A DNA stretch of 64,000 nt from a virus (taxonomy: Duplodnaviria > Caudoviricetes), in the IMG/VR virus record IMGVR_UViG_3300034044_000048, positions 2,245 to 66,244 of that record; one strand, given 5' to 3'. This document shows, one piece after another, positions 23,099 to 53,813 of this stretch. Each line of letters opens with the position of its first letter. The stretch's first letter is position 1. Both the position numbers and the translations under genes were made by a program. The notes beneath the pieces were generated by a model. That model was not told the origin of the DNA. It was given only the letters and a program-made list of their open reading frames with translations, and searched no databases.

Positions 23099-23153
23099 AT
23101 GTTTAAACTTAAAAGGTTTAAAATTATTAAATAATAAATATTAATTTAGCAAT

Positions 23154-26100: not shown

Positions 26101-26876
26101 CTAAAAATTTATCAGAAGTAATTTCATCATCTGATAGTGGTTTAAAAGGAAAAGGTCAGTTTATTGCTGACACTCAGCTTTTTGATGTTCCTACTAATAC
26201 TTCCTCTGATTTATGGGGCTATTCTAAAGATTTAATTGAAACAGTATTAACTAATAACCCACTTAAAACAGAAAGTGAATTAAATAAAGATGATAAAAAA
26301 GAATTTGGGTATTTTTTATTAAATGAATATAACTCATGGATGGAAGACTATACTGTGGGTCAAAATGATAAGTTTAAACCTGCTTCTATTGAATATAATC
26401 CAATTAAAGGAAGTGTATATAATAGTGAAATGAAAATTACTTTTCCATCAACCTTTATAGAAGATGTGTCTAAAAAATTAGATTTAGAAGAAAAAGAAGT
26501 AAAAAAAATGACAGAACCTTATGTTTTTAATATTAAAAATGATGAATCAAAAATAAAAAAAGCTACTCAATACAAACCTTTAAATACAATTGTTCCTAAT
26601 CCAGGAGATGAATTTACAATAGATTCAGGTTTTGGAAATAGCAATATTACTTTTCAAAATATTAATGGTAATCTTTATTATAAGGTTAATGTTCCTAGAT
26701 TTAATGAAACAACAAATGAAATTGTAGAAAGTTTTGAAAGTGATCAATTACCTAAAGATTATAGTTTAGAAGATTTTTTTAAAAATTATGTTCCTTATTT
26801 ATATACACTTGAGGAAGCAAAAAATCAAATTTTAAAAGAAATAAATGGAAAAACCAAACAACAACCTACCGAGTAA
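23154..26876 (+). CDS. Large virion cargo/ejection protein
   Basis: 1240 aa, mostly helical/coiled coil, MATYLQG start; within the cargo block. Confidence 0.55.
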   Translation: MATYLQGITDIIPQVQPWDPNLNFYSSILGTKQQKYNQGWQQVNNIYSSVLNSPMMREDTNAKRDQFFKDIENQIKQLSSVDLSLAQNIDMAGEIFKPFYEDELILKDLGFTKKYQDEMALADRYRKCLDDSCKGKYWKGGVKALQYQAEDFRNADKNSALRASLPEYTPYVNAMEKYSKAIKDMGFSMTYDEIKGGYIVTTKNGPKLQAPLMNFIMSRFGDDPELNDFYNTKSYLMLKENPEQATMMYQAAMMSQGQLNEEDVKKEVESVDLQNKYQKSKADIKKLREEEAGRKQVIEQRLNILQEEKKKGNIIPGSKAEMSFQQLIEAYNNQEISLKNLDSVNKTIRTIDQNLKDLGINAQKEQVQAVIANSMKYGDMMASASIMAFRDFEQKIKKDPYASARYKYSLENSKSYSGEGSNKNGSNALNTISESPLSASLNKGSLTKSNKTYIKKKTSSYLEELKDSGKISKADYEKLNDNLNVGDYNTFKEIVFKTEQLYNNHLLEKEQKQNEIKSVKPLGKDYGDNELIKDIEKAQDSGQNSDYYKAFSKYQHKQKYKASVYVQKANELKNSLNNKYLNAVVTSAKNGNEKALQEILYIGDNVQNLKKSTYFSTLPKGVKEVLNEFPHTKDPSNLTAENLYKLSSIANDGSLLNILGDPAKVNKILFDEDGVYNKKDYNSSNPDMSTMSEEDLKKYNYILNNEVVEFNRRFGKEEEISFYDEWIKENLDIKADLLVAKTLDASYNTLVDNHNKQVKQIVNKLSGKFPLDDSTLSEAEGLSGIIARNLFEFKDGDFARLKSFREIEEELYKTKYRPSFYTTTRDSWGDWDSWREAGSSPLQTLTISELEQSNNDAGSETSARYKPSTVLNLLANSEAYTPYVEPFKDEIYDKDKVWKLANSLSKNYNENPFKILKHNEDKLNLKRVGNKLEISLKPEYKKELGFNDKVIVNFEDVEVNDPLLEAVWDDGVTAYQQIVTEFTKNLSEVISSSDSGLKGKGQFIADTQLFDVPTNTSSDLWGYSKDLIETVLTNNPLKTESELNKDDKKEFGYFLLNEYNSWMEDYTVGQNDKFKPASIEYNPIKGSVYNSEMKITFPSTFIEDVSKKLDLEEKEVKKMTEPYVFNIKNDESKIKKATQYKPLNTIVPNPGDEFTIDSGFGNSNITFQNINGNLYYKVNVPRFNETTNEIVESFESDQLPKDYSLEDFFKNYVPYLYTLEEAKNQILKEINGKTKQQPTE

Positions 26877-31476: not shown

Positions 31477-31493
31477 TAAAAAATATTATAAAA

Positions 31494-34400
31494 ATGAATT
31501 GTGCTTTAACACCTAAAAAATTAGAAAATTTATATATATATAATTTTAAAATATTATTAAAATATACAAATGATGATAAAAAAGAATTTAATTTAAAAGA
31601 ACATATAAAATCAATTTATGATTCAATATATAATAAATCAAAAGATAGTAATCTAGCTACTTTATATGCTCAGCAAGTTCCTAGAATGACAGTTTTAGCA
31701 ATATCAAATGATAGAGAGTTATCTAAAACTATTAGAAAAAAAGGATTAGATGTAGCTGAGTTATATGATTTTGACGATCGTTATGAAGATTTTGAAGAGG
31801 TTATTAAAGATCTTTCAAATGATTCAGATCAATCTGTTAAAGAAGAAGATGTAGAGTCTATTAGAGATGAGATTAAAGAAACTGCTAAACGAAAACAAAC
31901 TAATCCAAAACCAGAAGGTACTCCAGAAGATATTGAAAAAGAAGAGGATAAAAAAGAATCTAATAAAAAAGAAATAAAAAGAGATATATATAGTGCTAAA
32001 CCTTCTACAGCTTTGGCATTAACAGGGCAAGAAGAAAAATTCAATGAAGAAACAGGTTTATGGGAAGAAGATCCTGAAAAATCTTTTTATTATGATTTTT
32101 TAAGATTAATTTTTGATAAATCTAATGATGGGTATATTGATGCAGAAAATCTTAAAATAGGTAATCATAAAGGTTTTAAAATAAAGGTAATAAGTAAAAG
32201 TAAATTACCTATAGATAAAGCAATGCCTGATGAACAAGAACTATTTAAAAATGAGCCTTCTAGAATGCCTGATTATGAAAAAGGAATTGGTGCTTTTATT
32301 ACAGATTTAGAAGGTAATATTTTATATTTTGATAAAAATTATAATACCGTTTCAAAAGAAGAGGGTATGCCTATTTATTTTAATTTAAGAACTCCTATTA
32401 AAAATGAAGATGGTAGTTTTTATTTAATGAAGGCTAAAATACAAACACCTGAAGAAATATTAAACAATGAGTTAAGAAATGGAGGTTTTGATGTTGCAGA
32501 GTATAAAAAAGAATATCCAGAATTATATAAACAATCACTAAAAGAAATTTATAATGTACAACAAGAAGAATTAAAACAAATTTCAAAAATAAGAAATGCT
32601 TTAAATGAAGATAAAAATAAAGAGTTTTTATTAAAAATTAATGCTGTTTCAAGAGGTATGTTAAATTACAGCTATAACTCTTATGAAGATCCAAATAACA
32701 TTAATTGGGATAAATCCGATGTTTCTTTTAATCCTGTAAAAATTATTAATGATGGTGATGTTAGACCTGGAGAATTTAAAGGTGGTATTTTTTTAAGAAT
32801 ACCTGGTCAAAGATCAATTAGGTTACAATCAAAAAATATATCTGACAAAGATATAAACATAATTTTAGAATTATTATTTAATCCTGATTTAAAATTAAAT
32901 AATAAACCTTTAAGTTTTGATATGAGGAAACACCTATTAGAAACTTTAGTTTATACAAATAAAAACTCTTTTCAATTAATTAAATCATCTGATAAATTTA
33001 TAGTTAAAGTTGAAGGTAAGCTGATAGATATTACTTCAGAAAAAAGTTTATTAGAAGCAAAAGAAAAAGTAAAAGAAATATTAACTAAGCCTTATAGTAA
33101 AAATTCTTCTTTTAATACTATATATGGTATTTATAATTTTAAAACTAATGACAAAAACAATATAGATGAAGTAGTTTCTATAAAGGATAATAAAGTTGAA
33201 TTAAAAGAAGTTCCTTTTGATGTGTATGCTAAAAGTCATACTTTATTAAAAATTAATTTATCAAATAAATCTGAAAAAACATTAAAATATGCAAATAATT
33301 ATTTAATGTTTTCAGTTGAAGGAGAGATAGTTAAAGAAGAAGAAGAAAGAAAAGAAGAGGAAGGAAAAGAAGGAATTAAAAAATCTGATACATCACAAAA
33401 AAAGATAGCAAAAATAAAAAATCCTACAATTAAAAAGGAAAGAAAAAAAATAGTTAGAAGAAAAAGAGAAAAAATAACCAGAAAGAAAAAAGACCATTTA
33501 GAAGCAAATAAAAAGATTTTACTTAAAAATTCTAAAAAACAAATTGATAAAGCAAAAAAATGGTTTGATAATTCAGAGTTATCTAAATATATAAAATTAG
33601 AAGATCTAACTAGCATAATTAATTCTGAAGCTTGGGCTAAATTTAAAGATTCTGCAATAACTCTTTATAAAGGTTCTAATTACACATTACTTTATCATGA
33701 ATCTTGGCATGCTTTTTCTCAACAGTTTTTATCTAAAACTGAACAAATTACTTTATACAAAGCTTTTGAAAAAACAAGGTTAGGTAAAGATTTAATTGAA
33801 AGAAAAACAGAAGAAGAAGAAAGAGAATTAACAGAAGAAGAAAAATACTTAGTTTTAGAAGAGTATATAGCTGAAGATTTTAGAGAATTTATGATTTATG
33901 GCACTTCTGAGTTATATGATAATAAAAAAGTAAAATCAATTTTTAAAAGGATATTAAATTTTTTAAAATCAATATTTACAAAAGAAGGAAGATTTAAATT
34001 AAAAATAAAAAAATATTTTAATGATTTAAAAACAGGAAATTTTAAACAATATGATCAATCTCAATTAAATTATTATTTTACAGGTAAAGATTTACATGCT
34101 AGGTTTGAGCCTGTTGAAGGTGTAGAAGAAGATTATAACATATCTGAAGATGATACAATTAGATTAATTAAATCTACTGATTCATTATTATTAAGTTTAA
34201 TACATGAGGAAAATATTAAAGTAAAATCTTCAAAATTTTTAATGTCTGTTTTACAAAATCCTAAAAAGAACTTACCTTTCTTTATGGATAAAGTTTATGA
34301 TAAATTAATTGACAGATATAATGAATTAATAGAAGAATTAGAAACTATAGAAAATGATAATGAATATTTAATATTAGATGAAAAAGTAAATGCTTTAGAA

Positions 34401-37400
34401 ACTTTAATTTCTCATTTTGGATTAAATGAAGATAATATATTTGAATCAACAGGGTTTGTTAAATTATACTTAGAAAAATCTATTTTAAACACTTTAGAGG
34501 TTGATTTATCAAAAGAACAATCTTTTTTTGAAAAACAGTTATCAGATAAAGAGGAAAGTCTTTTAGAAAAATTAGATGTTTATACTAAATTTTTATTATC
34601 TATAAATAAAGAAAGAGATGAATATGGTAATTTAGTAAAAGATGAATTTGGAGTACCTAAACTTTTACCTTTTAATGATGCTTATGCATTAATTAAATCT
34701 TTAAGTTATCAAAATAATGATTCTCCTAAAACTATTATAAATAAATTAAAAGAAGAATTATCTAATAATAGAAATTATTGGGTAAAAGAATTAATTGATA
34801 ATTTAGGTGATCCTAATACAGGTGATACAGACTTATTTAGATTACAAAGTAAATTTTGGCAAGACTTTTTTTACTCAAAAACTCCATTAATTCAAACAAA
34901 TATAGATCTTAAAAATCAAAATTCAAATACTCAACAATCAAGAACAGTTGATGTAAAAGTAGGAGAAGCTTCAGCTGTTCATAGAAATTTAGCTAATGAT
35001 ATAACTAGTCATTTTAAAACTGTTAGAAGTAATAGATTTATTAAATTTGTAGAAGGTGTTGGTAATGTTTTAGATACCGATGCTATATTAAAAAAATATA
35101 ATGAAAAATATACAGCTTCAAATAATTATAATGAATTTTTTAAAGATATTGGTTTAAATTTAAGTTATAAACCTGATTTAAAAAATAAAGATTCAGATAT
35201 TTTAAGAGATGCTGCAGGTAGATTTATAACTTTAATTAGAGAAAAAAATAAAATAGGATACCAGATTACAGATATAATTAAAGATTTAAGAGAAAAAACT
35301 ATTTATTATGAAAAAGATGTAAAAAAAGTTTTAGAAGGAGAAAATACTTCTTTAAGAAATGTTTTAAATTTAGAATTAAAAAATTCTATTAAATATGCTA
35401 ATGTAGGATTATCAACTCCAGATGGTAATGTAAAATTTGAAGACCATCAGTTTAGCACTATTGATATTTTAATTAAAGATATTAATAATTTAAATCATTA
35501 TAGTGAAATTTATAAATACCCTCATTTAAGTGAGTTTTGGATTGAAAATAATGATTGGGTTAAAAATTCAGCAATTTTCCATTCCTTATTCATTTGGAAT
35601 GAAAGTTTGCAAACTTTTGAAGATAGAAATAAAAGTGTTAAACTTGAAAAAAAAGAAATATCAGGAACTCAAGTAATTGAAGATGATCATTCTAATTTAG
35701 ATTATAGTGCTAAAACATCAAATGTTGATGAAAGTACCAGAATATTACAAGATATTCATAATGGTCTTTTATTAGGAGCTTTTTCTAACATAACACCATC
35801 TGATAAAGGTACTATAATATCTGTAACAACTAATGTTGTAAGTAGTTATAAGAATGAAGACACAGCCTCAAAAACAAAAAGATTATATGTTGATTATCAA
35901 GGTTTTGGTAAATTAGTTGGTAAACATAATGCTGCAATAGTCAAAGCTGGTAATATAATGATTGGCTATTTAGATGCTGAATTAAAAAGAATAAATAAAG
36001 TTAAAAAACATCAAGAAACAGGTGAAGAATTACCAAATATATTAGGATATACTGTTCCTGATAGTAGAGGAAATATAAGAGGTTTAGAATTTGGTATATT
36101 AGATGATGTTTTAAATTTTAAAAAAGGATTAAAAGAAAAACTTTTAAAATTAGAAAATGCAGACAGTTTAAAATCATTTGAAAATTTAGAGTTGTATAAT
36201 GAATTTTTAGATGCTGTAAATGATTATTTTAATTGGTCTTATGAACAAACACTAGGTGCTATAGAACCTTCTTTATTTTTCATTACTAAAGAAATTTTAA
36301 ATACTGCTAAAAAACAACTTAAAGATTTAGGTTTTGAGAATAAAGATTTAACCTTAGAAGCTTTAAGAAGAGTAGCATTAAAAACTTATGTTGTTAATTC
36401 TTTTTTACATCATGCTGAAAATTTTATTTTTTCTTATGGAGATTTAGCTCAGTATAAAGATATATTTAAAAGAAATTATGCTTTCCAATCTCAAGGTAAT
36501 ATGCATAGAACAGATCAAGAAGCTGTTGATTTTGTAAATGGTGTATTAGGAAGACCTTTTGAAAAAAAATATAAAAAAGAAAAAGGAATTGATGAACCTA
36601 TTAGAAGATATGATAATAAATTAAATACTGTTGTTTTTGAAGAAGTTACTGTTCAATCTGAATTAATAGGTGTTAATGATGATGGTTCATATAAAGAATA
36701 TACAAAAGCTGTAATAGAAGATTTAATTGAAAGAGGATATTCAAAAGAATTAGCTATTGAGATTGAAAAGATTGTAAATAAAGCTTATTATTCAATGGAT
36801 GAAGGAGATGCTGGTGCTTGCCTTAATTTTGATACTTATAGAATATTAAGTTATTTAAATGATTCTTGGAGTGATAAGCAAGAAGAATTATATCAAAAAA
36901 TACTTAATAATCCTGAAGAAATTTTAACAACAGACATATTAGAATATTTTCCTCCAAGAAAGTTTCAATATTTTGGAGCTTTAGAAATGAGTAAATTTAA
37001 TGCTAAAGCTTTACATAAGTATTCTTTATTTCCATTAATACCAACTGTAATTAAAAATACTAATTTAGAAAGGTTATCTGAAATAATGTATGAACAAGGT
37101 ATTGATTATGCAACTTATGAATCAGGATCAAAAGTTAGTACTATTGTACCAAAAGGAAAAAAATCAGGAGAAACTCTTTATTCAGATTTAAAAAATAGAA
37201 TTTTAGAAAGTAGAGAAAATGGAGAACCTTTAGTTAAAAATGTTATATATACTCATTTTTTAAAAGATCAATTAAAAATAAATTCTAAATTTAAAAAGAA
37301 AACAATATTTTCTACACAATTAAGAACTTTAATAGAAGACTCATTAATTGAAAATGGTATTCCTGTTGATTTTGAAAAAGATTTACCTTTTTTTGATAGA

Positions 37401-40400
37401 AAAGAAAAATGGGAATCTTTAACTGAATTAGAAAAATTTAAAAAATCTTTTTTTTACTCAAAGTTTAGAAGATACGAAAATAAAATTTCTAAATATATTG
37501 AAGTTCAAAAAATATTATTAAAAAAAGAATTAGGACTTTATGATCAAAACTCAGATAAAACTAAATTGGTTTCTGTAATAAAAGAAGAGTTATCAAGAGA
37601 AGATTTAGCTGAACACGAATTAGATTTTATTAGAGTTGATGAAAATGGCAAATTAGATATTGATTTATCTTTTTCACCATCTGCAGCAAAAATAGAAAGA
37701 ACTTTAAATGCTATTGTTAATAACAGAATAGTTAAACAGAAAATGAAAGGGGAATCTTTAGTACAGGTTCCTACCACTTTGTTTGAACCAAGAAAAGCAA
37801 CACAAGCTGAAAAAAAGAAGTATGGTGCAACTAATGATATGAAAAGTTACACTAAAGATCCAAAAACAGGTAAAACAAATGCTGCAGAATTTAAAATAGC
37901 TTTACAAGGAGATTTTAAAAAACTTTTACATCTTAAACACAAAGATGGAAAAAAAATAATGGTATATAAGAAAAGAATTTATACAAAACCAGATGGTACA
38001 ACCAAATATATAAAAGAAGTTGATCAAAAAGAAAGTTTAAAAAGATTAAATGAAACTATTCAAGATGCTGAATGGAGAAGTAAAGAAGAAAATAAAAGAT
38101 TAATTTCAATGATTGGTGTTAGAATACCTGTACAAGGTTTAAATTCAATGGAACACATGATTGTTTGGGAATTTTTACCAGAAGAAGCTGGTAATATAAT
38201 TATCCCTCCATCAGAAATAGTTGCTAAATCAGGTGCCGATTTTGATGTTGATAAACTTACTGTTCTTTTTCCGGGATTAGAATTAATAAATGGTGAAGTT
38301 CATTTTATAGAAGATACTAATGATTCATCTAGTGCACAAGAATCATTAGACAAAGTAGAATCATTAAAGGAAAAAATAAAAGAATTAGAAAAACAAAAAA
38401 ATGATTTAAGAAAAAAATATTCTTTAGAATATTCAAAAATATCAAATTCTGAATTAACTGAAAAACAAAGGTTAGAGAGAAATGAAATATTGAAACCTTT
38501 TTATGATGAATCAGATGAATTAGAACCTTATGCTGACTTAATAGAATCGCAAATTGATAAATTAGAATCTATAAAAAATAAATCAAAAAAACAACAACAA
38601 AAGTTAGAAGAATTATATGAACAATATGATGATATAATGAATAAAATAGATGATTTATATGATAGATTTGAAAAAGCTAAAAAAGAAATAGGTAAAAAGT
38701 TTTTTGAAGAAAAGTTTAAAAAGTTTGAAGAAACAAGAGATGCTGAGTTAAATCCTGTTTTAAATGAACTTAAATCATTAAAATTAGAAACACTTTCTAA
38801 TAGCACAAGTGCAATTCAAAATTCAATATTAATTGAAATGAGAGATATATTGAGTTTAGAATATAATTTTTTAAATTTAATAAGACCTAATAGTACTGAT
38901 TTATTTACAAGTGGGGGAGGTATTGTAGATGAGATGTCTACATATAAAGATTCTTATTTTAAATCTACATCGCCAACAAGAGCTTTAGAACCAAAGAAAA
39001 ATGCAAATGTTCATGCAAGAAACTCTATTGGTAAAAGTACTTTAGGTATATCTGCTAATGCAAATGTCTTTAATACATTGTTAAATAGAATTGGTGCTGT
39101 ATTAAATCATTCTTATAGAACTAAAAAAGGTGAAAAAAGAAAAGTTTTTATAAAATTAAATCATAATAAAATAGGAAATAATATTTCATTAAGTAATATA
39201 TTTTCTAAAGATGGTGTTAGAATATCAGATATAATTAATCAATTAATGAATGGTTATGTTGATATTGCAAAAGAAGATTGGGTATTTGATATAAATGCAG
39301 GTCAAGAAGCTGCACCAACTTTATTATTTTTAATTATGGCAGGGGTTCCTTATAAAGAAGCTATTTATTTTTTATCAAATCCTTTAATTAAAGAATATAT
39401 AAAAGAAAGACAAAACTTAGCATCAAGTTTTAGTAAAGCTACTGGTTATTCAGCAGAATCTATTGTTTTTAATAAAAATAAAGCAAAATTTAACATTTTA
39501 TCAAAATTTGAAGAATTAGAATTTGTTTTAGACTATGATAAATCATCAGTTAAACAAGGAAAGTTATATAACTATACATATAATAAATTAAAAAAGGTAG
39601 ATACTTTTGATGTAGAAAGAATAGGAAAAATGTTTTTTGAAGAAGCTTTAGATGATGAAGAAGCTTTATTAGGGTTTTTACATTTTTTACAATTAGAAGA
39701 TATAGGTAAGCATTTAAACTATTTTAGAAAAGCTGTTAAGCTTGATACTGTTAAAAATACAACTTTATTTGATGCTATTAATAAAGAAAATGAAATCAAA
39801 AAATTAAGTGAAGTTGGTTTACTTGATGAAAGTTATATTAAAAAAGCCTTTGAAGAAACCCCAACTGGTAAATTTAGAGTTGGTCCATATCAACTTGAAT
39901 TATGGCAACCTTTATTTAAAATAAGAACACATCCAAGAGTTACAAGTTATTTAAGTGATGTTTATGACACTTATAAATTTAATAAAGATGTTAGAATGAC
40001 ATTTAACGATGAGGAAAAATACATAGAAGAATTTAAAAATGATTTAATAATTGCAATTTTTGAAAATAGTTTATTACCAAAATCAGAATCAATATTAAAT
40101 GAAGGTTCTTACAAAGGTGTAGAGATTATTAAAACAGATGAGGATTTATTAATAGAATTATTTGAAGAAGATGAGGAAATTAAGTTTAAAATAAATTTAG
40201 AAAAATTAAAAGAAGCTTATGATAAATCTTTATTTTCTGAAACTAAAAGTTCATTAGAAAATAGTTTTGATAAGTTAGGTTTAAACTCTTTACCTTTATA
40301 TACTTTTTCTGATGGGTACTTTGATTCTTTTTTTAATTATATGTTAGAGCTTACTTATTTAAGATATGATTTTCATATTGATTATTTAAAACATACAAGA

Positions 40401-43298: not shown

Positions 43299-43321
43299 TA
43301 ATAAAAAATTAATAAATATAT

Positions 43322-46300
43322 ATGGCAAATTGTATAAATAAATCACTTCCTGAATTTAAAATTCTTGTTCAAAAAACAGGAATGAATAAACATATATTGG
43401 CTGCTAAAATAGCTATATGGCAAGATAAAAATAATACATTAGGTGTATTTCCAACAATAGAACAAATAATTGGTGATAACTCTACTAAATTAACAAATGT
43501 ATCTAATCAAGAAAGACTATATCAAAAAGGTTATATTAATGATAACTTAAAAGAAACTGAATTTGGTATTAGAGATTTAGCAGCAAGATTAGCTAATAGA
43601 ATTGGTGGAGAAGTTGAATTTATTTCTGATTTAACAAAAGATTTTTCTGGTTATAATGAAGGTAGTAAATATGTCATCAACTTAGCCAAAGCCACTTTAG
43701 ATACACCTATACATGAAATAGTAGGACATCCTATTATTAGAGCTATTAAAGATAATAAAACTATTAAAGACAACTATAAGGAATTACTGGATTCTGTTGA
43801 TAATATTGAAGGTGATTTTACTACTTATGAGAAAATAAATGGAAAATGGTATAGTGTATTTAATGGTATCAATGGAAGGGAATTAACTAAAGAAGACCCT
43901 AACTCTGATTCTTTTAAAACTGTAGTAAGAAATGCCAAATCTTTAAAAGACAAGTTTAAAAAAAGAGAAGAGTCTGAATTATATCAAAACTTACTAAAAG
44001 AACTTGAAACAGGTTATGGTAAAGAAGTATTAGATAGAATTAAAAAAGAGTATGTTTATAAAGAAATTAGTACTTCTTTACAAAATGAATTAAATGATGA
44101 GGATGATTTTGATTTTGATATAGCTAAAGAACTTGAAACTAAAACTTTAAATGGTAAAAAATATATACACAGAATACAAGATAATATAGGAAGATGGTAC
44201 GAACAAGTACCAATGTCTTTAGAAGAACAGCAGGAAGAGGCATTAGTACAATTATTAGGAGAACTTACAGCAGGGAAAATAAAAGAAACTAAAGAAAATA
44301 AAAATCTTATTAGTTTACTTAAACGGTTGTTAAAAGAAATGACTGCTTACATGAGAAGTTTATTTAACTCTAAAGAAATAGAGATAGATAAATTATCAGC
44401 AGATATGACATTAAACGACTTAGCTAATTTACTTGCTTATACGAATAGTAAAATTATATTACCTGGAAGTAGAGTTGAATATACTACTCCTGATAATAGT
44501 AAATTTAGTACTTATCAAGAAGCAAGTAATCATATTAGTAAATTGTTTAAAGAAAGTAAAGATGTTGATTTAAGTGATGTTGGTTTAGATTTAAGAAAAA
44601 AAGTAAATAATAGTATTGAAATTCCTGTTTCTAAATTTACAGATGAATTTACAAATGATGTATTCATTAAAAAAGACAATAGTTGGTACTATGAAAATAC
44701 TGACAAAAAAGTTGATGATGCGTTAATTATTCACACATGGAATAATAATATTTCTGATAATGTAATAGGTAAATCCGGAGTAGAAGGTTTTATAGAAAAA
44801 AATAAACCATTTGAACAATCTAAAGAAATAATAGAAATTTGGAAGAAAGAAAATAATATTAAATATAATCCTGAAGAAGTTTATTCAAGAGGGCAAGGTT
44901 TTTATTCTTCTATTGGTGCTTATAGTACTATAGAGTTAGATTTACTTTTACAAAATTTATTACACCATATTGAAGATAACAAAAAAGCTAGTGGTAAATT
45001 TGCTATATCTGCATTTACTAAACCTGTTGGTAAAAGAATAAAACATTTAGAAGGAGAATCTTCTGTTAGATTTAAAATATACCCTAAATCAGAAGATATA
45101 TTATGGGCAGCACCTACTGATGTATTTAGTGGAAGTGTATGGGATGCTAGTGAAAAAGTAAGTAAGAATAAAAAATCTGAATTACTAGGTGTATCTCATA
45201 CTAAAGCTCCTTCTTTAAATAATATCAATGAGGTAAGCCCTAATCTTGCCGATATTATTGATAAAAGAAGTCATGATCATAATGAATTGGGAATTGAATT
45301 AACTCATACTAATTTTAGATTAGAATATGATGAAACAGTTCCTTATGAAATTAAAAAACTTGTTAATTCTATTAATAGTATTTTAGATAGTAAATATGGT
45401 AAAATAGTTAAGCCTGAAATTAAACAAAAAGGAGAAAAAATAATACAATATGGTATATTTAGTGAAGGTGCAAATGATATATTAGACTGGTTTGATACAA
45501 AAGAAGAAGCTCAAGCTAAGGTTGATGAATCTAATCAACAGCTTATAGATTTAGGACTAAATCCTGATTTTAGTGTCAAACCTATTACCAAACCAATAGG
45601 TATCCAACCAACTAAAACTAAAGAAAATACTACAAGTATTGAGAGTGTTAAAGACAAGGTATTAAGAAATACTGATAAATATGTATTACAGCAACATGGG
45701 GATAAATTTGTAATATATGATATTGAAGAACAAGAACCTTTAGATATTTTTGAGAATAAAGAAAATGCTTTAAAAGAAATTAAAAAATTAACTGGACAAG
45801 AAAGCTTAAAAGAAAAAGAATACACTTCTCAAGCATTAACTAATACTAAAATAGCTATGCTTAAAGAAATAGCTAAAAAATACCCAAGAAGTTTAATTAC
45901 AAGTAAGGTAGTTAATAATCAAAGTAGTGAAAGACAGTATCAAAAAAATAAAAGAACTAAAGATGTATTTAATCAAAAAGAATTTAAAAATCAAGTTAAT
46001 TATTCATTAAAAACTGTTGATATATTATCTTCTGATAAAGCCAAACAAGTATTTGCTAAAGGAGAAAAGAATGGCTGGAGTTTAAATAAAATTCTAACAG
46101 AACTTCAAATACCTAAAGAACAAAAACAAATTATATTAGATAAGAATATAAAAAATCCTAATATACTTAACAGTAAAGAAGAGTTAGATAAAATAGCTAA
46201 TAGTAATTCCAGATTATCTAAAGTTGCTAAATTAATAGCTAATAAAATTTCAAGTGCTACTAATAGAATAGTTTATGCAGATTTTAATATTATTGATAAA

Positions 46301-47299
46301 AGTAACGCAGCCGGAGTAGCATATAGTTCTTTAGAAGATGGAATATTAAAAACAGATGTAGGATTAAATAAAAGTACTATAGAACAAGTAATTAAATATA
46401 GAAAAGATTTATCTGATTTTAAAGAAGAAACTATAGTTCACGAAGAAATACATAGATTTACTCAGTTATTATTTCAAATAGATAGAGTAAAAGGCGATAA
46501 AACATTAAAAGAAATAGGATTTAGTAAGGCTGAAATAGATTTTGTTGAAGAAGTAAAAAGTTTATATTCTCAATATAAAGCTACTAATAATACTAATAAT
46601 GATTTTAACCAACCTAATACTTCTATTGAAGAATTTATTACTTATGGTTTAACTAATGGTGAGTTTATTAAACACATATCTAAAATTAAAGTAAAAAATA
46701 CTACTGTATTAGAAAAATTAATATCTATACTGACTAAACTTTTTGGAAATGATATTTCTATTAAACAAGCATTAGATAAATCTTTTGAAGATTTTATGTT
46801 AGCAGATACCATATTAGAAGAAATATCTGAACAATCAGATTTTTTAAAACCTGATAATTTTAACCTAAGAGAAGAAATAATCACATCTTTATTAAATGAT
46901 GTTAATAAATTTAAAAATTTAAAAGATAATAGATCAACATTAGAAAAGGAATTAAAATTTAATTTTAAATCTTTTAAAGATGAAACAGAAGAAAATAAAA
47001 ATATAGAAGGTTTAAGATTAAAAATTGATCATTTTGAAGTAATTAAAAATGAAGATGGTTATTTTTATAATAACGGTAATGAAATTACAGATGAAACAAT
47101 AATTAATAAATTTGAAATTAGAAAAGAATTAAGAGAAGGTAAATTAAGAATTGGAGAATATAATAATAATAATTATTTTGTGCTATCAAATGGTAAGATA
47201 TTAGGCTCTGGTAAAACTAATTTAGGTAAAGAAACAATCTCAGATCCTAAAATAAAAGAAGAGATTTTAAAAAATGCTATTAAATATAAAAATTGTTAA
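43322..47299 (+). CDS. Large polyvalent-type cargo protein with two zincin-like motifs
   Basis: HEIVGH (43712-43729) with downstream EEALV, and HEEIH (46439-46453) with downstream EEFIT. Confidence 0.65.
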   Translation: MANCINKSLPEFKILVQKTGMNKHILAAKIAIWQDKNNTLGVFPTIEQIIGDNSTKLTNVSNQERLYQKGYINDNLKETEFGIRDLAARLANRIGGEVEFISDLTKDFSGYNEGSKYVINLAKATLDTPIHEIVGHPIIRAIKDNKTIKDNYKELLDSVDNIEGDFTTYEKINGKWYSVFNGINGRELTKEDPNSDSFKTVVRNAKSLKDKFKKREESELYQNLLKELETGYGKEVLDRIKKEYVYKEISTSLQNELNDEDDFDFDIAKELETKTLNGKKYIHRIQDNIGRWYEQVPMSLEEQQEEALVQLLGELTAGKIKETKENKNLISLLKRLLKEMTAYMRSLFNSKEIEIDKLSADMTLNDLANLLAYTNSKIILPGSRVEYTTPDNSKFSTYQEASNHISKLFKESKDVDLSDVGLDLRKKVNNSIEIPVSKFTDEFTNDVFIKKDNSWYYENTDKKVDDALIIHTWNNNISDNVIGKSGVEGFIEKNKPFEQSKEIIEIWKKENNIKYNPEEVYSRGQGFYSSIGAYSTIELDLLLQNLLHHIEDNKKASGKFAISAFTKPVGKRIKHLEGESSVRFKIYPKSEDILWAAPTDVFSGSVWDASEKVSKNKKSELLGVSHTKAPSLNNINEVSPNLADIIDKRSHDHNELGIELTHTNFRLEYDETVPYEIKKLVNSINSILDSKYGKIVKPEIKQKGEKIIQYGIFSEGANDILDWFDTKEEAQAKVDESNQQLIDLGLNPDFSVKPITKPIGIQPTKTKENTTSIESVKDKVLRNTDKYVLQQHGDKFVIYDIEEQEPLDIFENKENALKEIKKLTGQESLKEKEYTSQALTNTKIAMLKEIAKKYPRSLITSKVVNNQSSERQYQKNKRTKDVFNQKEFKNQVNYSLKTVDILSSDKAKQVFAKGEKNGWSLNKILTELQIPKEQKQIILDKNIKNPNILNSKEELDKIANSNSRLSKVAKLIANKISSATNRIVYADFNIIDKSNAAGVAYSSLEDGILKTDVGLNKSTIEQVIKYRKDLSDFKEETIVHEEIHRFTQLLFQIDRVKGDKTLKEIGFSKAEIDFVEEVKSLYSQYKATNNTNNDFNQPNTSIEEFITYGLTNGEFIKHISKIKVKNTTVLEKLISILTKLFGNDISIKQALDKSFEDFMLADTILEEISEQSDFLKPDNFNLREEIITSLLNDVNKFKNLKDNRSTLEKELKFNFKSFKDETEENKNIEGLRLKIDHFEVIKNEDGYFYNNGNEITDETIINKFEIRKELREGKLRIGEYNNNNYFVLSNGKILGSGKTNLGKETISDPKIKEEILKNAIKYKNC

Positions 47300-47302
47300 A
47301 AT

Positions 47303-48259
47303 ATGGCAGGAACATGTAACATAAAAAAAGAAATTAGAAAAAAAGTTAATAAAGAAATTTATGAAATTTATAAAAATTATGAAGTATTAAACTCTTTTTC
47401 TAAAGCAACTGAATTAAATAATAAAATTAATAATTTATATAATTACAATATATCAAAGATAATACCTATAGATGATAAATTCAAAGTAGCAATAAAAGAA
47501 AACAATTTGGAAAAAGTTATTGAAGAAAAAACAATAAAACAAATTTCTTTACAAGAAAAACTTGAAAAAACACATTCCTTTTTAAAAGATGATTTATTTG
47601 TATCTAATAAAACATCTAAAAAAAATAATATTAAGGAAGAAGTTAAAAATGACAAATATTCATCTAAATTATTACTTGAATCAATTAAAAAGCATTATGG
47701 AGATGATGCTTATGAAGTGAGAAGAAATCTTATTGAAGATATTGGTAATATTTTTAAAGGTAATGCTAATTCAATAGTGATTAATGAAGAATTTCCATCA
47801 TTAATAACTGTTAATTATAATAAAAGATTTAGACCTAAAACTGATAAACAAGCTAAAGCTATGTTAATTTCTAATATAGAAAGGGTTAGAAAAAGAATAT
47901 CTGAAAAGTTAGGAGATAAAGTTAAAGCGGACCAATGGATAAAATTTGGATTTAATGGAAATAATCATTATGTTTCAATTAACATTCCTAATAATTTTCT
48001 AGTTTTTATTAATGAAGAATTTGAAAAATATTATATAGAAGAAGAGCATAAAATAAATAATACTAAAACATTTACAGGTAGAAATTTAGATTATTTTAAT
48101 AATGATGAAGCTTTATATGAACAAGAAGAACTTAATTTAAATAATTTAACTAAATTAGAAGTTTTAAATAATTTTACAAAAAGTGAATGGTCTAAATTGA
48201 CTTATAAAGAAAAAAATAAAATAAACAAAGAGGGAACAAAAGATGAAATGTGCGATTAA
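47303..48259 (+). CDS. Hypothetical cargo protein with terminal cysteines
   Basis: 318 aa; MAGTC start, MCD end; C-terminal motif resembles that of the RNAP polyprotein. Confidence 0.55.
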   Translation: MAGTCNIKKEIRKKVNKEIYEIYKNYEVLNSFSKATELNNKINNLYNYNISKIIPIDDKFKVAIKENNLEKVIEEKTIKQISLQEKLEKTHSFLKDDLFVSNKTSKKNNIKEEVKNDKYSSKLLLESIKKHYGDDAYEVRRNLIEDIGNIFKGNANSIVINEEFPSLITVNYNKRFRPKTDKQAKAMLISNIERVRKRISEKLGDKVKADQWIKFGFNGNNHYVSINIPNNFLVFINEEFEKYYIEEEHKINNTKTFTGRNLDYFNNDEALYEQEELNLNNLTKLEVLNNFTKSEWSKLTYKEKNKINKEGTKDEMCD

Positions 48260-51200
48260 AACAGATGCTGAATTTATTCAGTTACAAGAAGAGCTTAAAA
48301 TTGATAAAAACAGCTTATTGGTAAGAACTGCTTTATGGATTAAAGAAAACAATTCAGACAGATACCCAACACCTAATGAATTGAAAAAGTTTTATGAAGA
48401 TAATTTTGATGTAATTCCTTTTGAAAAGGCTGTTAAAGACTTTTTTAATGAGAAAAAACAAACTATAGAAAAATCAGAAGATTTTTTAATTGAGTTTAGC
48501 TCTAAATTGACTTCTAATTTAGGTCTGAAAAATAACATAATTGAATTTATAACACCTGAAAATGCAAAAATATTAACTCAAGATAGTAAAAATCCATATA
48601 CAAATCAAAAATCTTTTTTTTATAAAGGGAAAATCTATTTTGTTAAAGGCAATTTTAATTTTGAAACTGTTATTCATGAGTTTTCACACATTTTTGTTAA
48701 AGCTATCTCAATTGATAATGAAAAATTATTTAATAAACTTTTTGATGATATAATAAAAACAGATAAAGGTAAATTATTTTTAAAAGAATCCTTAGAAGAA
48801 TATCCAGGTCTTACAAAAAACCACTCTCAAATAAAAGAAGAAGTTATTGTAAAAACAATTACTGATTATCATTTAAATAATTCTAATGAAACTAAAAATA
48901 TTATTGATAGAATTATTTTTGCAATAAAACAATTAATAAGAAAAATATTTAAAGTTAATCCTAAAAATCTTTCATTAAATACATCAATTAAAGAATTATC
49001 TGAACTAATAGTTGATGGTTCTTGGAATGTAAACATGAATGTAATATCAGATTCTAATATTGTTTCTTATTTAAGTGAATACAAAGAAAGATATAAAAGT
49101 TTTAAAAAAGCTTTTGAATCAGAAGAAGGTAGAATGGCTATATTGCATCAATTAACTCTAAATTCTAAAATAGTAAGAAATCAATTAAAAAGATTATCTG
49201 AAACTGAAGACAATATAAAAGAACAATTAACAGAAACTTTCACTACACTATCAGATGAGTTTTTATTTGATGTAATGCAGTCTAATATAGGAAAACAATT
49301 AGATAGTAGAGAAAAAATAAAATTAGCAGCTTCAGAAAAAATTGATGAATTAAAAGAGTTTGAGAAAAAAATTGAAGCTCTTGCTTTTAATTTAGATACT
49401 TTAGATGAGATGTTAATAAATATAGAAAGTGATATAGCATATATGAAAACATCTCCAGGTTATATAGAAAATTTAAAAAAGACTGCTTTTTATGATGAAA
49501 GTTTAGACCAATGGATTAAATATTTAGAAGAATTTAAACTCAATTTAGAAGATTCAAATGTTAGCATAGTATCTGCTCTTTATAAAGATATATCTGAACT
49601 GCAAGATAAGGCTACTATTTTAAAAAGAAAAGCTAAAAAAATATATGAAAAAGGTATGGGAAAAACTTTAAGTGAAGTTTTTGAACCTACTAAAGATAAA
49701 ATGCTTGAACATTTTAATGAACAAATAGCAGAAAAAGAAAAACAATTAAAAAAAGTTAAAAAAGGTACTAAAGTATATGATCTTTTAGTTAAAGATATTG
49801 AAGGTTTAAAAAAAGTTATTGAAAGAATTAATATTGATCCAGAAGAAATGATAAAACATTTAACTGGTAAAAAAGGAGATATTGGTTTTTTACATGCATA
49901 TCTTGAAAATTTCTTATCAAATCAAGATCCTTCAATTGCTTCATTTGCTTTATTTGTCAAAGAACATTTGAGTAATACACAAGCTAAAGTTCATAATGAT
50001 TATTCAGAATTTCTTACAAAAATATCACCTAAGTTAAATAAACTAGGAGTAAAACCTTCAGAAATGTCAAAATTTGCTAAATTGTTTTTATTTACTGATA
50101 AAACTTATAAGTATAATGATGATGGAGAAATTGAAGAATTTGAAGTTTTAACTTATTTAAATGAATATCAGAATTATAAATATACATTAAAGAAAATTAA
50201 TCACGAATTAGAAAAAGCTAATTTAAATTATGATAGAAAAAGAACTCCTGAAAATTTAAAAAAACTTGAAGAAATTCAAAAGTTAAAAGACACACATCTT
50301 GATTTGTTTTTTAAAAAGAAATTTGTTGATGAATTTTATCAAGCAAATAAAATATTAGATAATTCAAAATATGGAGAAGAATTAAAAAATGAAATAGAAA
50401 GAATCTTTTCAGAAATTAGAATGTATCAAAGTTCACATCCAGATCCTCATGTTGTTTATGATGATTATGAAATAGTAGAATCTTTATTATCAGAATATAA
50501 ATCTTTATTTAGTTTACATGACAAATATGGTAATAAAAAAACAGGTGAAGAGTTAGAAAAAGCTGAAATTTTAAACAAATGGAGAAATGAGAAAAATAAA
50601 TTTTATAGATGGGAAACTAAACATGGAGCTTTTAAATCTGCTTATGAGAATTTTATAAAAAAATTAGAAATCAGTTTAGAAAAACAAAATATTAAAAAAG
50701 GTTCTGAAGAATGGGATATTGAGTACAATAAACAAAAAAAAGAATGGGAAAGATTAAATCTTTCTACAAAGATAAAAGATTCTTTTTATGAAGAAAGATC
50801 TAAAATATTAAGTTTAATAAATGAAATATTAGGAAGAGAAGAACAAGATCTTCCGGAGTATTATGAAGACATTATTGACAATTTAAATCCTGAAAAAGAT
50901 TCTGATGGTATTCCTAATGGAACCATAATGACAGAAGAAAAATTAAAAAATATTTTAGAATTAAATAAAAAAGCTGAAGAACTAAGAGAAATTTCATCAC
51001 AAAATACTTTATCTTTTTCAGAAAAAAAAGAATTAAATTTATTAATTAGAAAATTAGCAAGCGGTAAAACATTAACTGAAAAAGAAATAAAAAGAAAAAA
51101 AGAATTAGAACAAAAAAATAAACCTTTAAGTAAAGCTTTAAAAACTCAATTAAATATTTTGTATCAAAAGTTAAATAAATTACAAGAAAGAACACCAACT

Positions 51201-53813
51201 AATTATTATTATGATATTTTAAATAACTTTTATAGAAAGATCCAAATAGCTGATGGAGTAGAAGATGGGGATATAGAAGTAATTACAAGCGACAACATTA
51301 AAAAATTCAAAAATCCATTTTTTATTGAAAGAATTTTAGAAAAAGATGAAGAATTTAAAAATTGGTTTTTGAATAATCATTATGAAAAAGAAGTATTTAA
51401 TACTAAAACTTTTGAAAAAGAAATTATATATGAACCTTCACATGCCTGGACTTATGTTAAACCAAGAGATGAGAAATATTATGAAAAAACTGAAATATTA
51501 GAAGAAGATGGTATAACAGTTAAAGAAGTTTTACATGGTGTACCTAATATGAAATATAAGGAAAAAATAGTTAAAGATGAATACTATGTAGGATATGATA
51601 AAGAAACAGGTAAAATAGATAATTCAGTTTGGAAAGATGTTCAAGGTAACCAATTACCTAAATCTTTAGAAGAAATGGAAAAAGTAGATAAAGATTTACT
51701 TGATGAACATAATATTGAATTAGAAAAGTTTTTTGGAAATAAATTTTCTTATGATCATTACATTAACAGAAATTATTTAAAATTAAAAGAAGAAAATGAT
51801 ACAAGATTTGAAGTATTAGAAGAATTAAAAAATTTTCATTTAAAAAATCAAGAAAAAGCTCATAAACATGCAAGATTAGGTTATGAATTACCAAGATTTA
51901 GAAAAACTACTGATCAATATATATTAAATAGTTCAACTGATGATGATAATAAATCAATAGGTGGAAGATTATGGGGTGGTATTTCTGCAAAATTTGTAAA
52001 AAAGGCAGATGATTTTGAAGAAGTAGGTGCTAATTTTGATTCTGAAGCTTTATATGTTGATTTAGATATATTTGCTAATGATAATGTTAAAATACCTGTA
52101 AGAGGTAAGTTTAATTTACCTATAGATCAAGTTAATTTAGATGTTATAGGCTCTACAATGGCATATTATTTATCAATTGAACAACATCAAACTTTATCTA
52201 AATTGCATCCTTTTGCTAGAGCTATGTCTAGATTATCTGAAGAAAACCCTGTTGATATTAAAAAAGTTTTAATTAATAGTTATACTAAAAGATTAATACC
52301 TGGAAAAACTAATAATAGAAAAGAAGTAATTGAAGCTATGATTGCTATGACCTTTGAAGGAAAAAAATTAAAAGATAGCAATAATAATGCAACTTTAATT
52401 AGAATCATGAATACTATGTTAAAGACAGCTTCTCATACTTATTTTGCTTTAGATGTTCAATCAGCTGTAAAGAACTATTTAGGTGCTAGATGGCAAATTT
52501 CTCAAGAATCTTTTAGAGGAAAATATTACACATATAAAGATTATGTAAAAGCAAGACCTTGGGCTGTAAAAACATCAACTCAAATATCACAAGAAATATA
52601 TAGTACAACTGCTAAATCTTTAAATGTACAATTAACGGAAGTTTTTGATGTTCCTCAAGGTAGAATGACTTCTAAATTTGGAGAATCTCCTGGGAGGTCT
52701 TTAAAAAGAGATGTTTTTAATTTTACTTGGTTTACTTCACACAGAAAATGGTTAGAATTAGAAGCAAGTTTAGAGCAATTTGGAGCATTGATGAATGCAA
52801 CAATGATAAAAATTAAAACAGAAGATGGAGAAAAGGAAATAAGTTATTTAAAAGCTTGGGAAATAGATGAAAAAGGAAGACTTAAATTAAAAGAAGGAAT
52901 TGATAAAAAATATGATATTAATGGTTCTGAATTTAATAGACTTAAACATTTAAATCATGAACTATCTAATAAAAAACAAGGGGCTTATGCAGAATTAGAA
53001 CAACCTGCTGCTTCAAGATATTTAATGTTTAGACCTGTAATAGCTTTAAAAAAATATTTTAGTCCTATGTTGATAGATAGATGGGGTCATGTAAATTTAA
53101 GATGGGAGTCTGGTCTTAGAGCGGATCCTAGAATTAATCTAGGAATGGGTCAAGAGCATATGGGTTGGTATATTCAAAATTTAGTAACTTTTTCAAAATT
53201 AATTGAAAGTAGATTCAAATATGCACTTACCATGACTAAAGAAGAAAAAAGAGCTTTAATGTTAGGAGCTTTAGGTGTGCTAAGATTAAAAGTTTTCTCT
53301 TTAATATTAACCCTTCTATGGGATCTTACTGATGGAATGTGGGGTTGGGATGATGATGATGAAGATAGAAATGATAAATTAAAAGCTAGAAGTGGGGCTC
53401 TTCCTTCTTTTTGGACAGAAGAAAAATATACTAAAGATTTTAATGTAGTCGGTTGGTTATCTTCTCATTTAACTCTTATGGCTATTGAAGCTCAATCTGA
53501 ATATGAAAATTTTATACCTTTACCAGGATATGGTCTTAATTCTCAATATCAAACAGTTGCAGAAGATTTTTCTATTGCTTTTGGAGGTTCTATAAAAATT
53601 TATAGAAATATATTGGAAGATCTATATTTTACAGCTACAGGAAATAAAATAGTTGAATATCAAAAAAAAGCCGGTGTTATGAAGTTTCAACAAGAGGGTT
53701 CTAATAAATTTTGGGCTGATTTTTGGAGATTAGTTGGTGTAAAAGAAAAATACTTCGATCCTTCAAAAGGTATTAAAAATAGACATTCAATTTCAACCTC
53801 ATATAGAAGATAA
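48243..53813 (+). CDS. Large ejection/cargo protein with N-terminal zincin and C-terminal hydrophobic helix
   Basis: HEFSH (48675-48689) plus EEVIV; ALMLGALGVLRLKVFSLILTLLW near the C-terminus; last gene of the plus-strand block. Confidence 0.65.
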   Translation: MKCAIKTDAEFIQLQEELKIDKNSLLVRTALWIKENNSDRYPTPNELKKFYEDNFDVIPFEKAVKDFFNEKKQTIEKSEDFLIEFSSKLTSNLGLKNNIIEFITPENAKILTQDSKNPYTNQKSFFYKGKIYFVKGNFNFETVIHEFSHIFVKAISIDNEKLFNKLFDDIIKTDKGKLFLKESLEEYPGLTKNHSQIKEEVIVKTITDYHLNNSNETKNIIDRIIFAIKQLIRKIFKVNPKNLSLNTSIKELSELIVDGSWNVNMNVISDSNIVSYLSEYKERYKSFKKAFESEEGRMAILHQLTLNSKIVRNQLKRLSETEDNIKEQLTETFTTLSDEFLFDVMQSNIGKQLDSREKIKLAASEKIDELKEFEKKIEALAFNLDTLDEMLINIESDIAYMKTSPGYIENLKKTAFYDESLDQWIKYLEEFKLNLEDSNVSIVSALYKDISELQDKATILKRKAKKIYEKGMGKTLSEVFEPTKDKMLEHFNEQIAEKEKQLKKVKKGTKVYDLLVKDIEGLKKVIERINIDPEEMIKHLTGKKGDIGFLHAYLENFLSNQDPSIASFALFVKEHLSNTQAKVHNDYSEFLTKISPKLNKLGVKPSEMSKFAKLFLFTDKTYKYNDDGEIEEFEVLTYLNEYQNYKYTLKKINHELEKANLNYDRKRTPENLKKLEEIQKLKDTHLDLFFKKKFVDEFYQANKILDNSKYGEELKNEIERIFSEIRMYQSSHPDPHVVYDDYEIVESLLSEYKSLFSLHDKYGNKKTGEELEKAEILNKWRNEKNKFYRWETKHGAFKSAYENFIKKLEISLEKQNIKKGSEEWDIEYNKQKKEWERLNLSTKIKDSFYEERSKILSLINEILGREEQDLPEYYEDIIDNLNPEKDSDGIPNGTIMTEEKLKNILELNKKAEELREISSQNTLSFSEKKELNLLIRKLASGKTLTEKEIKRKKELEQKNKPLSKALKTQLNILYQKLNKLQERTPTNYYYDILNNFYRKIQIADGVEDGDIEVITSDNIKKFKNPFFIERILEKDEEFKNWFLNNHYEKEVFNTKTFEKEIIYEPSHAWTYVKPRDEKYYEKTEILEEDGITVKEVLHGVPNMKYKEKIVKDEYYVGYDKETGKIDNSVWKDVQGNQLPKSLEEMEKVDKDLLDEHNIELEKFFGNKFSYDHYINRNYLKLKEENDTRFEVLEELKNFHLKNQEKAHKHARLGYELPRFRKTTDQYILNSSTDDDNKSIGGRLWGGISAKFVKKADDFEEVGANFDSEALYVDLDIFANDNVKIPVRGKFNLPIDQVNLDVIGSTMAYYLSIEQHQTLSKLHPFARAMSRLSEENPVDIKKVLINSYTKRLIPGKTNNRKEVIEAMIAMTFEGKKLKDSNNNATLIRIMNTMLKTASHTYFALDVQSAVKNYLGARWQISQESFRGKYYTYKDYVKARPWAVKTSTQISQEIYSTTAKSLNVQLTEVFDVPQGRMTSKFGESPGRSLKRDVFNFTWFTSHRKWLELEASLEQFGALMNATMIKIKTEDGEKEISYLKAWEIDEKGRLKLKEGIDKKYDINGSEFNRLKHLNHELSNKKQGAYAELEQPAASRYLMFRPVIALKKYFSPMLIDRWGHVNLRWESGLRADPRINLGMGQEHMGWYIQNLVTFSKLIESRFKYALTMTKEEKRALMLGALGVLRLKVFSLILTLLWDLTDGMWGWDDDDEDRNDKLKARSGALPSFWTEEKYTKDFNVVGWLSSHLTLMAIEAQSEYENFIPLPGYGLNSQYQTVAEDFSIAFGGSIKIYRNILEDLYFTATGNKIVEYQKKAGVMKFQQEGSNKFWADFWRLVGVKEKYFDPSKGIKNRHSISTSYRR

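Follow-up and report, generated by a model that had tools for sequence, protein, structure and literature searches.

Terminal cysteines at the junctions of giant cargo proteins in crass-like phages and a candidate disulfide-linked ejection chain

Five cargo genes with cysteines at their junctions

The sequence analysed is a stretch of 64,000 nucleotides (the window) from the IMG/VR virus record IMGVR_UViG_3300034044_000048, an uncultured contig with a CheckV completeness of 55%. Between positions 26845 and 53813 it carries five consecutive open reading frames (ORFs), all open under translation table 11. They make up a crAss-like phage cargo block that is centred on the polymerase and lies downstream of the muzzle gene. 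The five giant proteins that they encode, called links 1 to 5 here, are probably packed and injected by the phage. On translation they comprise 8,976 residues (1543 + 3934 + 1325 + 318 + 1856) and only nine cysteines. Eight of these lie at most 5 residues from the eight termini that face a neighbouring link, and the two outer termini have none. Under random placement over 8,976 positions, the probability that at least eight of nine cysteines fall within 5 residues of a terminus is 8e-18.

Link 1 (1543 residues; 26845..31476, plus strand) has a sole cysteine, its last residue (codon 31471-31473), and none at the N-terminus. Link 2 (3934 residues; 31494..43298, plus strand), a virion RNA polymerase with additional effector-type domains, contains Cys 3 (31500-31502), Cys 1776 (36819-36821) and Cys 3933 (43290-43292). 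Link 3 (1325 residues; 43322..47299, plus strand) has one cysteine at each end, Cys 4 (43331-43333) and Cys 1325 (47294-47296), as does link 4 (318 residues; 47303..48259, plus strand), with Cys 5 (47315-47317) and Cys 317 (48251-48253). The last protein, link 5 (1856 residues; 48243..53813, plus strand), has a sole cysteine at residue 3 (48249-48251) and none at the C-terminus. Link 2 is counted from the ATG at 31494; the ORF listing extends it to a TTG at 31470, which would place its first cysteine at residue 11. The start at 31494 fits the family pattern seen in related sequences.

An initial annotation of the window had described the five ORFs as nearly free of cysteine, with a cysteine on both sides of every junction, none at the two outer ends and a single internal one in '...GACLN...' of the polymerase. 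Translation bears this out, and all eight terminal codon positions that it gave are correct. The internal residue is Cys 1776, in '...GDAGACLNFD...', and it stays unexplained by a chain of linked proteins. Several related giants likewise have one internal cysteine at a roughly similar depth (for example locus L005, residue 1763, and locus L031, residue 1705).

The same annotation had suggested that one cysteine at the fourth junction might be incidental. At this junction the two genes overlap, and the cysteine codons TGT (48249-51) and TGC (48251-53) have one base in common. Because only that base is shared, neither codon is forced by the other, and the suggestion does not hold.

The label of RNA polymerase given to the 3934-residue protein is supported by a DFDVD motif at residue 2249 and by blastp similarity to crAss001 gp50 (E 1e-18), phi14:2 g066 (E 3e-18) and p-crAssphage gp44 (E 5e-12). 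Link 2 also contains DUF7831 (residues 3632-3735), the only domain above the Pfam cut-off in the window cargo, and a match to a DprA-like PHROG (residues 3215-3358). PHROG searches gave no match for four of the five chain proteins and just three weak or partial matches for link 2. A phmmer search of link 2 against PDB sequences returned no matches, and phmmer found none between window proteins and those of crAss001, phi14:2 and other references, where blastp did. Link 5 has weak blastp similarity to Leptolyngbya phage protein 81 and an HExxH motif at residue 145 (regular-expression search). No match was obtained for link 3 by tblastn against phages, and a related-locus search with the 318-residue link 4 gave no relatives.

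Conservation among homologs and related loci

The homologs of link 3 (n = 119; 730-2313 residues) contain 176 cysteines in 192,399 residues, and 166 of these are terminal. There are 106 at position 7 or earlier and 60 in the last 15 residues, leaving 10 internal. Counted by protein, 55 homologs have both terminal cysteines, 51 the N-terminal one only, 5 the C-terminal one only and 8 none. Several of the cysteine-less homologs have a cut N-terminal end, as a longer twin in the list shows. Those with an N-terminal cysteine only include proteins of ~2000-2300 residues. The domains found in these homologs are ART-PolyVal (PF18760), NADAR (PF08719), AlkB (PF13532), zeta (PF06414) and AAA_33 (PF13671).

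The homologs of link 1 show the pattern of a first protein. In 25 sequences (49,169 residues) there are 25 cysteines, and in 24 of the 25 proteins a cysteine is located 0-3 residues from the C-terminal end. None of the 25 has an N-terminal cysteine, and the sole member without any cysteine looks C-terminally cut.

Gene-order pairing was scored in 38 IMG/VR loci collected with a profile of the link 3 family, as a cysteine in the last 8 residues of the upstream protein and another in the first 7 residues of the downstream protein. Unique junctions between consecutive cysteine-poor ORFs have a cysteine on both sides in 39 of 42 cases. The remainder comprises no junction with the tail cysteine only, one with the head cysteine only, and two with neither, one of which is a block end. 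Five more junctions, in which one partner exceeds 0.7% cysteine (inserted or non-cargo genes), were excluded beforehand. The last gene of each block has an N-terminal cysteine only. The terminal enrichment and the pairing by gene order that the initial annotation had proposed to look for across relatives are thus both present.

In one of the related loci (L039, 4265-10660) the chain is apparently broken. A 557-residue protein has the N-terminal cysteine and no C-terminal one (Cys 491 is found instead), and is followed by a 629-residue ORF with four internal cysteines and then by a 942-residue protein with both terminal cysteines.

Named and cultured phages

The terminal-cysteine rule is also obeyed by crAss001, phi14:2, DAC15, p-crAssphage, cr3_1, cr118_1 and Leptolyngbya phage Lbo-JY46. 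Three of these have three cargo genes that carry the pattern. In phi14:2 the first protein, g067, has only C1797, its last residue; the middle one, g066, which is the solved virion RNA polymerase (PDB 6vr4), has C3 and C2179 of 2180; and the last, g065, has only C3. There is no further cysteine in the 5,398 residues of the three proteins. In crAss001 the corresponding proteins are gp47 (only C2339 of 2341), gp50 (C5, C1334 and C2404 of 2412) and gp49 (only C5). In DAC15 they are gp078 (only C2220), gp076 (five cysteines including C5 and C2265, the last residue) and gp077 (C4 and C619). The other four have no middle protein. Their first and last proteins are gp23 (only C2057, the last residue) and gp24 (C3) in cr3_1, gp45 (C1956 of 1957) and gp44 (C3) in p-crAssphage, gp14 (C4943 of 4946) and gp15 (only C3) in cr118_1 (Suoliviridae), and p82 (only C1552, the last residue) and p81 (only C4) in the Leptolyngbya phage.

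These genomes bear on whether the cysteines could be a by-product of a nucleotide signal at gene boundaries, or of wrong gene calls, introns or recoding. The overlapping genes at the fourth window junction could be read this way, and introns and alternative codes are common in crass-like genomes (PMC7886860). However, in crAss001 and DAC15 the first-link gene lies on the strand opposite to the other two, so the pattern does not come from a shared gene boundary. The spacing of the cysteines to the stop or start codon also varies, the two codons of the fourth junction share a single base, no Rfam intron was found at the one split junction that was searched (see below), where an ORF fills the gap, and the five window ORFs are open under table 11. 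The opposite-strand partners largely refute a nucleotide signal, and explanations of this kind are barely credible.

Fused and split cargo genes

The cargo material is not always divided in the same way. In relatives it is carried as two to four genes, and in three loci regions that are separate in the window are fused. A 4291-residue protein (L014) covers the regions resembling the giant link 2 and the 1325-residue link 3 and has one cysteine, at 4290. Two others cover the regions resembling links 3 and 5 (1325-like and 1856-like), with 2789 residues and one cysteine at 4 (L024), and 3212 residues and one cysteine at 6 (L037). In all three the fusion point is without cysteine.

The converse arrangement is found in L005, L016 and L039, where the break falls midway through a conserved domain that runs uninterrupted in dozens of homologs. 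The upstream half has an extra tail of 16 residues ending in cysteine. The downstream half has an extra head of 28 residues beginning M-A-C, and the domain resumes at the very next residue. In L005 the gap (12025-12765) is occupied from stop to start by a 246-residue ORF whose N-terminus is, by eye, of the GIY-YIG type. An intron is rejected here, as the ORF fills the whole gap and no Rfam match was found at E <=0.1 in L005 11800-13000. ORFs of the GIY-YIG type (180-247 residues) lie in junction gaps of L004, L005, L016, L021, L027 and L039, flanked by a cysteine-ended tail and a cysteine-started head. In L021 the head type of the L005 split recurs at a different break point, and the tail before it likewise terminates in K-E-C.

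Further junction gaps, in L003 (9500-9997), L012 (4343-4747) and L021 (9603-9988), contain small inserted ORFs of 117-162 residues; that in L012 resembles that in L021. Insertions seem to favour the junctions between cargo genes.

Tail and head modules

The residues around the terminal cysteines belong to short conserved modules, with the cysteine 0-13 residues from the C-terminal end in tails and at residues 3-7 in heads. The tail of link 2 (type a) consists of approximately its last 23 residues, '...TQEEWDNLTQEEKDNIIKCG' (43227..43295, plus strand), and phrog_8831 matches link 2 at residues 3907-3931. A second type-a tail forms the C-terminal ~26 residues of link 4 (48179-48256, plus strand). 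In the tail alignment (A2), the consensus is '..T..EW..L...EK..I..C', with the threonine and the cysteine invariant. Each of these tails faces a type-A head, formed by approximately the first 50 residues of link 3 (43322-43471, plus strand) and by the start of link 5 (48243-48392, plus strand). The head alignment (A3) spans ~50 residues with the consensus 'M..C[IV]N..P.F..L......AAKI..WQ.KNN...FP', in which a cysteine, a tryptophan and a proline are invariant. Window junctions 2 and 4 use one and the same tail/head pair.

Tail and head types correspond across loci. Among 43 unique junctions with cysteine on both sides, every one of the 9 type-a tails leads into a type-A head, the two window junctions included. 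A '...KEC' tail is followed by a 'CKYKY' head in 5 of 6, and a 'C..PF' tail by a 'PPC/PKC' head in 2 of 2. Fisher values for this correspondence are just descriptive, because the sequences are related and the classes were drawn up with the data already in view. The head module is widespread, and its profile matches 710 representative proteins at E <=1e-3 (in 1.84 billion). Among the matches listed, the match starts at residue 1-5 in 148 of 150, and a cysteine is present at position 8 or earlier in 144 of 146 new proteins. Of the two exceptions among these, one is a false match and the other starts at an internal methionine.

The dimensions of the modules speak to a different use of the cysteines, in which ligation chemistry (a thioester, or an acyl shift like that of trans-splicing) would either link the proteins through some non-disulfide bond or process the protein ends. 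Cysteines flanking a break recall intein and native-ligation chemistry, and some of the breaks contain homing endonuclease genes. The added peptides, with tails of ~16-25 residues and heads of ~28-50, are too short for split-intein halves when the usual sizes of such halves are taken as the yardstick. The head cysteine is at residues 3-7 and not at 1, the distance from tail cysteine to end varies from 0 to 13, and Pfam finds no Hint/intein domain in the five chain proteins. Ligation is accordingly considered very improbable.

A complex prediction for an A2 tail with an A3 head gave an ipSAE of 0.45 (0.44-0.47 over the runs), while the best of three controls gave 0.00. The partner predicted local distance difference test values (pLDDT) are at least 71, and contact agreement between runs is at least 90%. 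Of 80 solved complexes, 58 attained the mark used, as did 2 of 110 mismatched pairs. At an ipSAE of 0.60 or lower only 7 of the 80 solved complexes passed, together with both mismatched pairs, so the pass of this pair is weak.

The main rival to a disulfide is a contact in which tail and head dock and the cysteines contribute to a non-covalent interface or to a shared metal site (Zn, Fe or Cu). The pairing logic fits any junction-specific contact, and the weak docking prediction says nothing on the bond. The anaerobic hosts of crassviruses disfavour oxidation. Against a metal site, each terminus supplies one cysteine, and A2 and A3 have no conserved adjacent histidine, aspartate or second cysteine, so a usual metal site is unlikely, with too few ligands at the termini. 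Also against this rival, the same signature in cyanopodophage A4 is a disulfide (PMC12002296), and crAss001 virions contain disulfides in the tail and gp57 (PMC10172136). Taken together, a metal or purely non-covalent contact appears unlikely, though less so than the other alternatives.

Setting of the cargo block

The block is preceded by the gene for the crassvirus muzzle protein (1612 residues; 14062..18900, plus strand), identified by Pfam (PF25731 crAss_MUZ, E 2.7e-26) and by a PHROG match as a virion structural protein. This gene, on the same strand, is the start marker of the cargo block. Three cysteine-poor ORFs of 611, 769 and 1240 residues (18952..26876, plus strand) separate it from link 1. 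The first two have no cysteine, and the third has Cys 128 and Cys 133, both internal. These ORFs are not chain links, because none has a terminal cysteine. They occupy the place of the cargo genes gp45/gp46 in a position comparison with crAss001, and Pfam and PHROG searches gave no family match for them. The 1240-residue ORF (23154-26876) and link 1 have 32 bases in common at the start of the latter (26845-26876).

The ORF listing under table 11 shows six large ORFs in 23154-53813, all in one direction, and gene direction changes after link 5. The position and gene order of the block are as for the crAss001 cargo genes gp45-gp50. Cysteine content in the block (18952-53813) is 0-0.63%, versus 0-3.2% in the minus-strand genes. 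The genes at 1554-14056 of the same window are rich in cysteine, unlike the cargo block (0.6-7.2%, and at least 2.5% in 10 of 12 ORFs), so the scarcity in the cargo is not genome-wide.

A proposed chain and the points that bear on it

The terminal-cysteine pattern is real and functional. Judging from the sequences, it is highly probable that the paired cysteines couple consecutive cargo proteins. The bond itself would be a disulfide, giving a linked cargo chain in crassviruses, with a probability of about 0.62.

Wherever the cargo material is divided into separate genes, a tail peptide closes the upstream protein and a head module opens the downstream one. According to the proposed model, the tail would dock specifically with the head, and the two thiols would then form an inter-protein disulfide in the virion. 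Separate proteins would in this way become one linear hetero-chain in gene order, of 8,976 residues here, equivalent to a fused polyprotein. A link at the extreme termini would make the product nearly linear. Passage through the portal and tail would require unfolding, and cysteine is purged elsewhere, plausibly because stray disulfides in dense cargo would block it.

The initial annotation had proposed a C-to-N chain in gene order. This part is sustained by the conservation of the pattern, the chain ends, the loss of cysteine at fusion points, the cognate tail and head types, and the cultured phages. We infer the remaining parts, which are that the bond forms in crassviruses, that it leads to co-packaging in equimolar amounts and to ejection in order as a single thread, and that reduction in the host cytoplasm releases the proteins. 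Virion mass spectrometry exists for the relatives crAss001 and phi14:2.

A further, tentative idea is doubtful on present evidence. Cysteine-tipped tails and heads may be portable connectors that provide a third, splicing-free way to make gene fission harmless, introns and inteins being the other two. Cut pieces would be re-joined after translation by docking and a terminal disulfide. The result would be an injected 'polyprotein by disulfide', in which link order is entry order and which is untied in the host cytoplasm. A homing-endonuclease cassette would sometimes bring the connector along when cutting a cargo gene.

Several points weigh against the disulfide chain. The sequences are related by common ancestry, so the counts and Fisher tests do not amount to independent trials. 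Oxidation of buried cargo thiols has to be assumed, as the hosts and habitats of crassviruses are mostly anaerobic. The A2 and A3 prediction returned no contacts, and hence no distance between the cysteines. Some lineages have several internal cysteines, such as the 10 in IAS virus gp056 and the 8 in p-crAssphage gp44. The chain is apparently broken in L039, where the protein that follows the 629-residue ORF has an N-terminal cysteine without an upstream partner.

Two named phages are less clear cases. In crAss002, gp32 has a single cysteine at 2019, and gp33 (L042, 9270-9380) has its cysteine at annotated residue 35. This phage obeys the rule only if gp33 starts at an internal methionine, residue 33, which places the cysteine at residue 3 of a usual head, 'MSC...'. 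From this, the annotation probably places the start of gp33 too early, by 32 codons. In IAS virus, the gp055/gp056 junction (L046, 11476-11510) is unreadable owing to runs of N in the public record. This split of the polymerase gene is suspect because the Ns lie exactly at the gene boundary, and it may be an assembly artefact.

Finally, two lone terminal cysteines have no visible partner. These are Cys 856 of p-crAssphage gp47 (L049, 14787-17360; 857 residues) and Cys 5 of the Leptolyngbya phage protein '85' (L048, 2626-4650; 674 residues). No facing cysteine occurs in the neighbouring genes, and both orphans are unexplained. They would be expected if terminal cysteines bound some other partner, as in an N-N or C-C homodimer or a contact with the portal, capsid or DNA, and if the pairing by gene order were coincidental. 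The binding of the crAss001 cargo protein gp45 to portal and tail (PMC10172136) could be taken in the same sense. Such a role gives no reason for first links to be without an N-terminal cysteine (0 of 25), for last links to be without a C-terminal one (51 of 119 link 3 homologs are N-terminal-only), for cysteine to be lost at fusion points, or for tail type to predict head type (9 of 9). A homotypic dimer is rejected by the chain-end rule. Binding to another partner is on balance improbable, and the disulfide chain is preferred.

Comparison with known systems

The closest counterparts are the cargo proteins gp47/gp50/gp49 of crAss001 and g067/gp66/g065 of phi14:2, which share with the window the position after the muzzle, a homologous RNA polymerase and the terminal cysteines. 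The window differs in having five links rather than three, and extra effector-type domains. Crassvirus cargo is packed in virions and must partly unfold to exit (PMC10172136; 10.1101/2020.03.07.982082), and in some phages it forms one fused polyprotein (bioRxiv 10.1101/2020.03.07.982082). The phi14:2 preprint assumes that fused polyproteins are cleaved and does not propose a joining of split proteins; neither cysteine nor disulfide is mentioned in its main text (10.1101/2020.03.07.982082). In the crAss001 paper, disulfides are listed in the tail and gp57 only, the tail being disulfide-stabilised, and the legend of Extended Data Table 2, which covers disulfides, names the tail assembly (PMC10172136). 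Its main text contains neither the word 'cysteine' nor a cargo disulfide, and leaves the order of the cargo to 'interactions with one another' (PMC10172136).

The polyvalent proteins of phages and conjugative elements described by Iyer et al. (2017) are giant proteins with many domains and are proposed to enter the host together with the DNA (PMC5512222). Neither 'cysteine' nor 'disulfide' occurs in the main text of that paper, and it describes no links between separate proteins (PMC5512222). The link 3 homologs are similar to these proteins in having ART-PolyVal, NADAR, AlkB, zeta and AAA_33 domains, and HExxH motifs are present.

Phage genes can be split by free-standing homing endonuclease genes of the mob/seg type. 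The related loci resemble such splits in having a GIY-YIG-type ORF between the domain halves and no intron or intein. They differ in that each half has an added cysteine-tipped peptide, and in that the head type recurs (L005, L021).

The published precedent for a terminal cysteine pair is cyanopodophage A4 (Anabaena phage A-4L), in which a disulfide between gp27 Cys1715 and gp26 Cys5 was described in the pre-ejectosome (PNAS 2025; PMC12002296). In the cryo-electron microscopy map (3.4-3.6 A), the C-terminal helix of gp27 is docked in gp26 (PMC12002296). In the A-4L genome, gp27 (1717 residues) has Cys 1715 and gp26 (1114 residues) has Cys 5 as their single cysteines. As in the window, these are consecutive ejection-protein genes, with the sole upstream cysteine 2 residues from the C-terminal end and the downstream one at residue 5. 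This type of signature is found at all four window junctions. The systems differ in that A4 has one pair and not up to five links, and in that A4 belongs to the T7-like podophages and has a core that is ordered and pentameric. In a blastp comparison of A4 gp26-gp29 with the window cargo and all locus proteins, there was no match at E <=0.01. Because of this, the precedent counts as an analogy, which weakens its support for the chain, and the likeness is one of mechanism and not of family. It also counts against the chain that the bond in A4 holds together an ordered core, with no demonstrated part in threading (PMC12002296); because of this, a purely structural role of the bond is also possible in crassviruses, by the same analogy. 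The A4 paper presents the bond as a detail of the structure and states no general rule, fused-versus-split logic or portable modules (PMC12002296).

The initial annotation knew of no description of such joined proteins. For Crassvirales this agrees with literature searches, in which no prior description of terminal-cysteine links was found; outside that order, A4 supplies one published disulfide pair of this kind. An order-wide rule, chains of up to five links, a fused-versus-split logic and portable matched connectors were not found in the literature.

Crassviruses are the most abundant human gut phages. If true, a terminal-cysteine code would explain both their interchangeable fused and split layouts and the near absence of cysteine from their cargo proteins. 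It would relate the two layouts by adding a joining of split proteins to the cleavage assumed in the phi14:2 preprint. It also suggests small natural connector peptides for the ordered coupling of proteins.

Coliphage N4 (L051) provides a comparison with an ejected polymerase that is a single polypeptide. Its virion RNA polymerase gp50, gp51 and gp52 contain no cysteine in 3500, 644 and 150 residues, respectively. N4 is similar to the window in that its ejected virion proteins avoid cysteine, and differs in having no terminal cysteines and no sign of a chain. Cysteine avoidance is therefore common to another ejected polymerase, whereas the terminal cysteines go with split chains.

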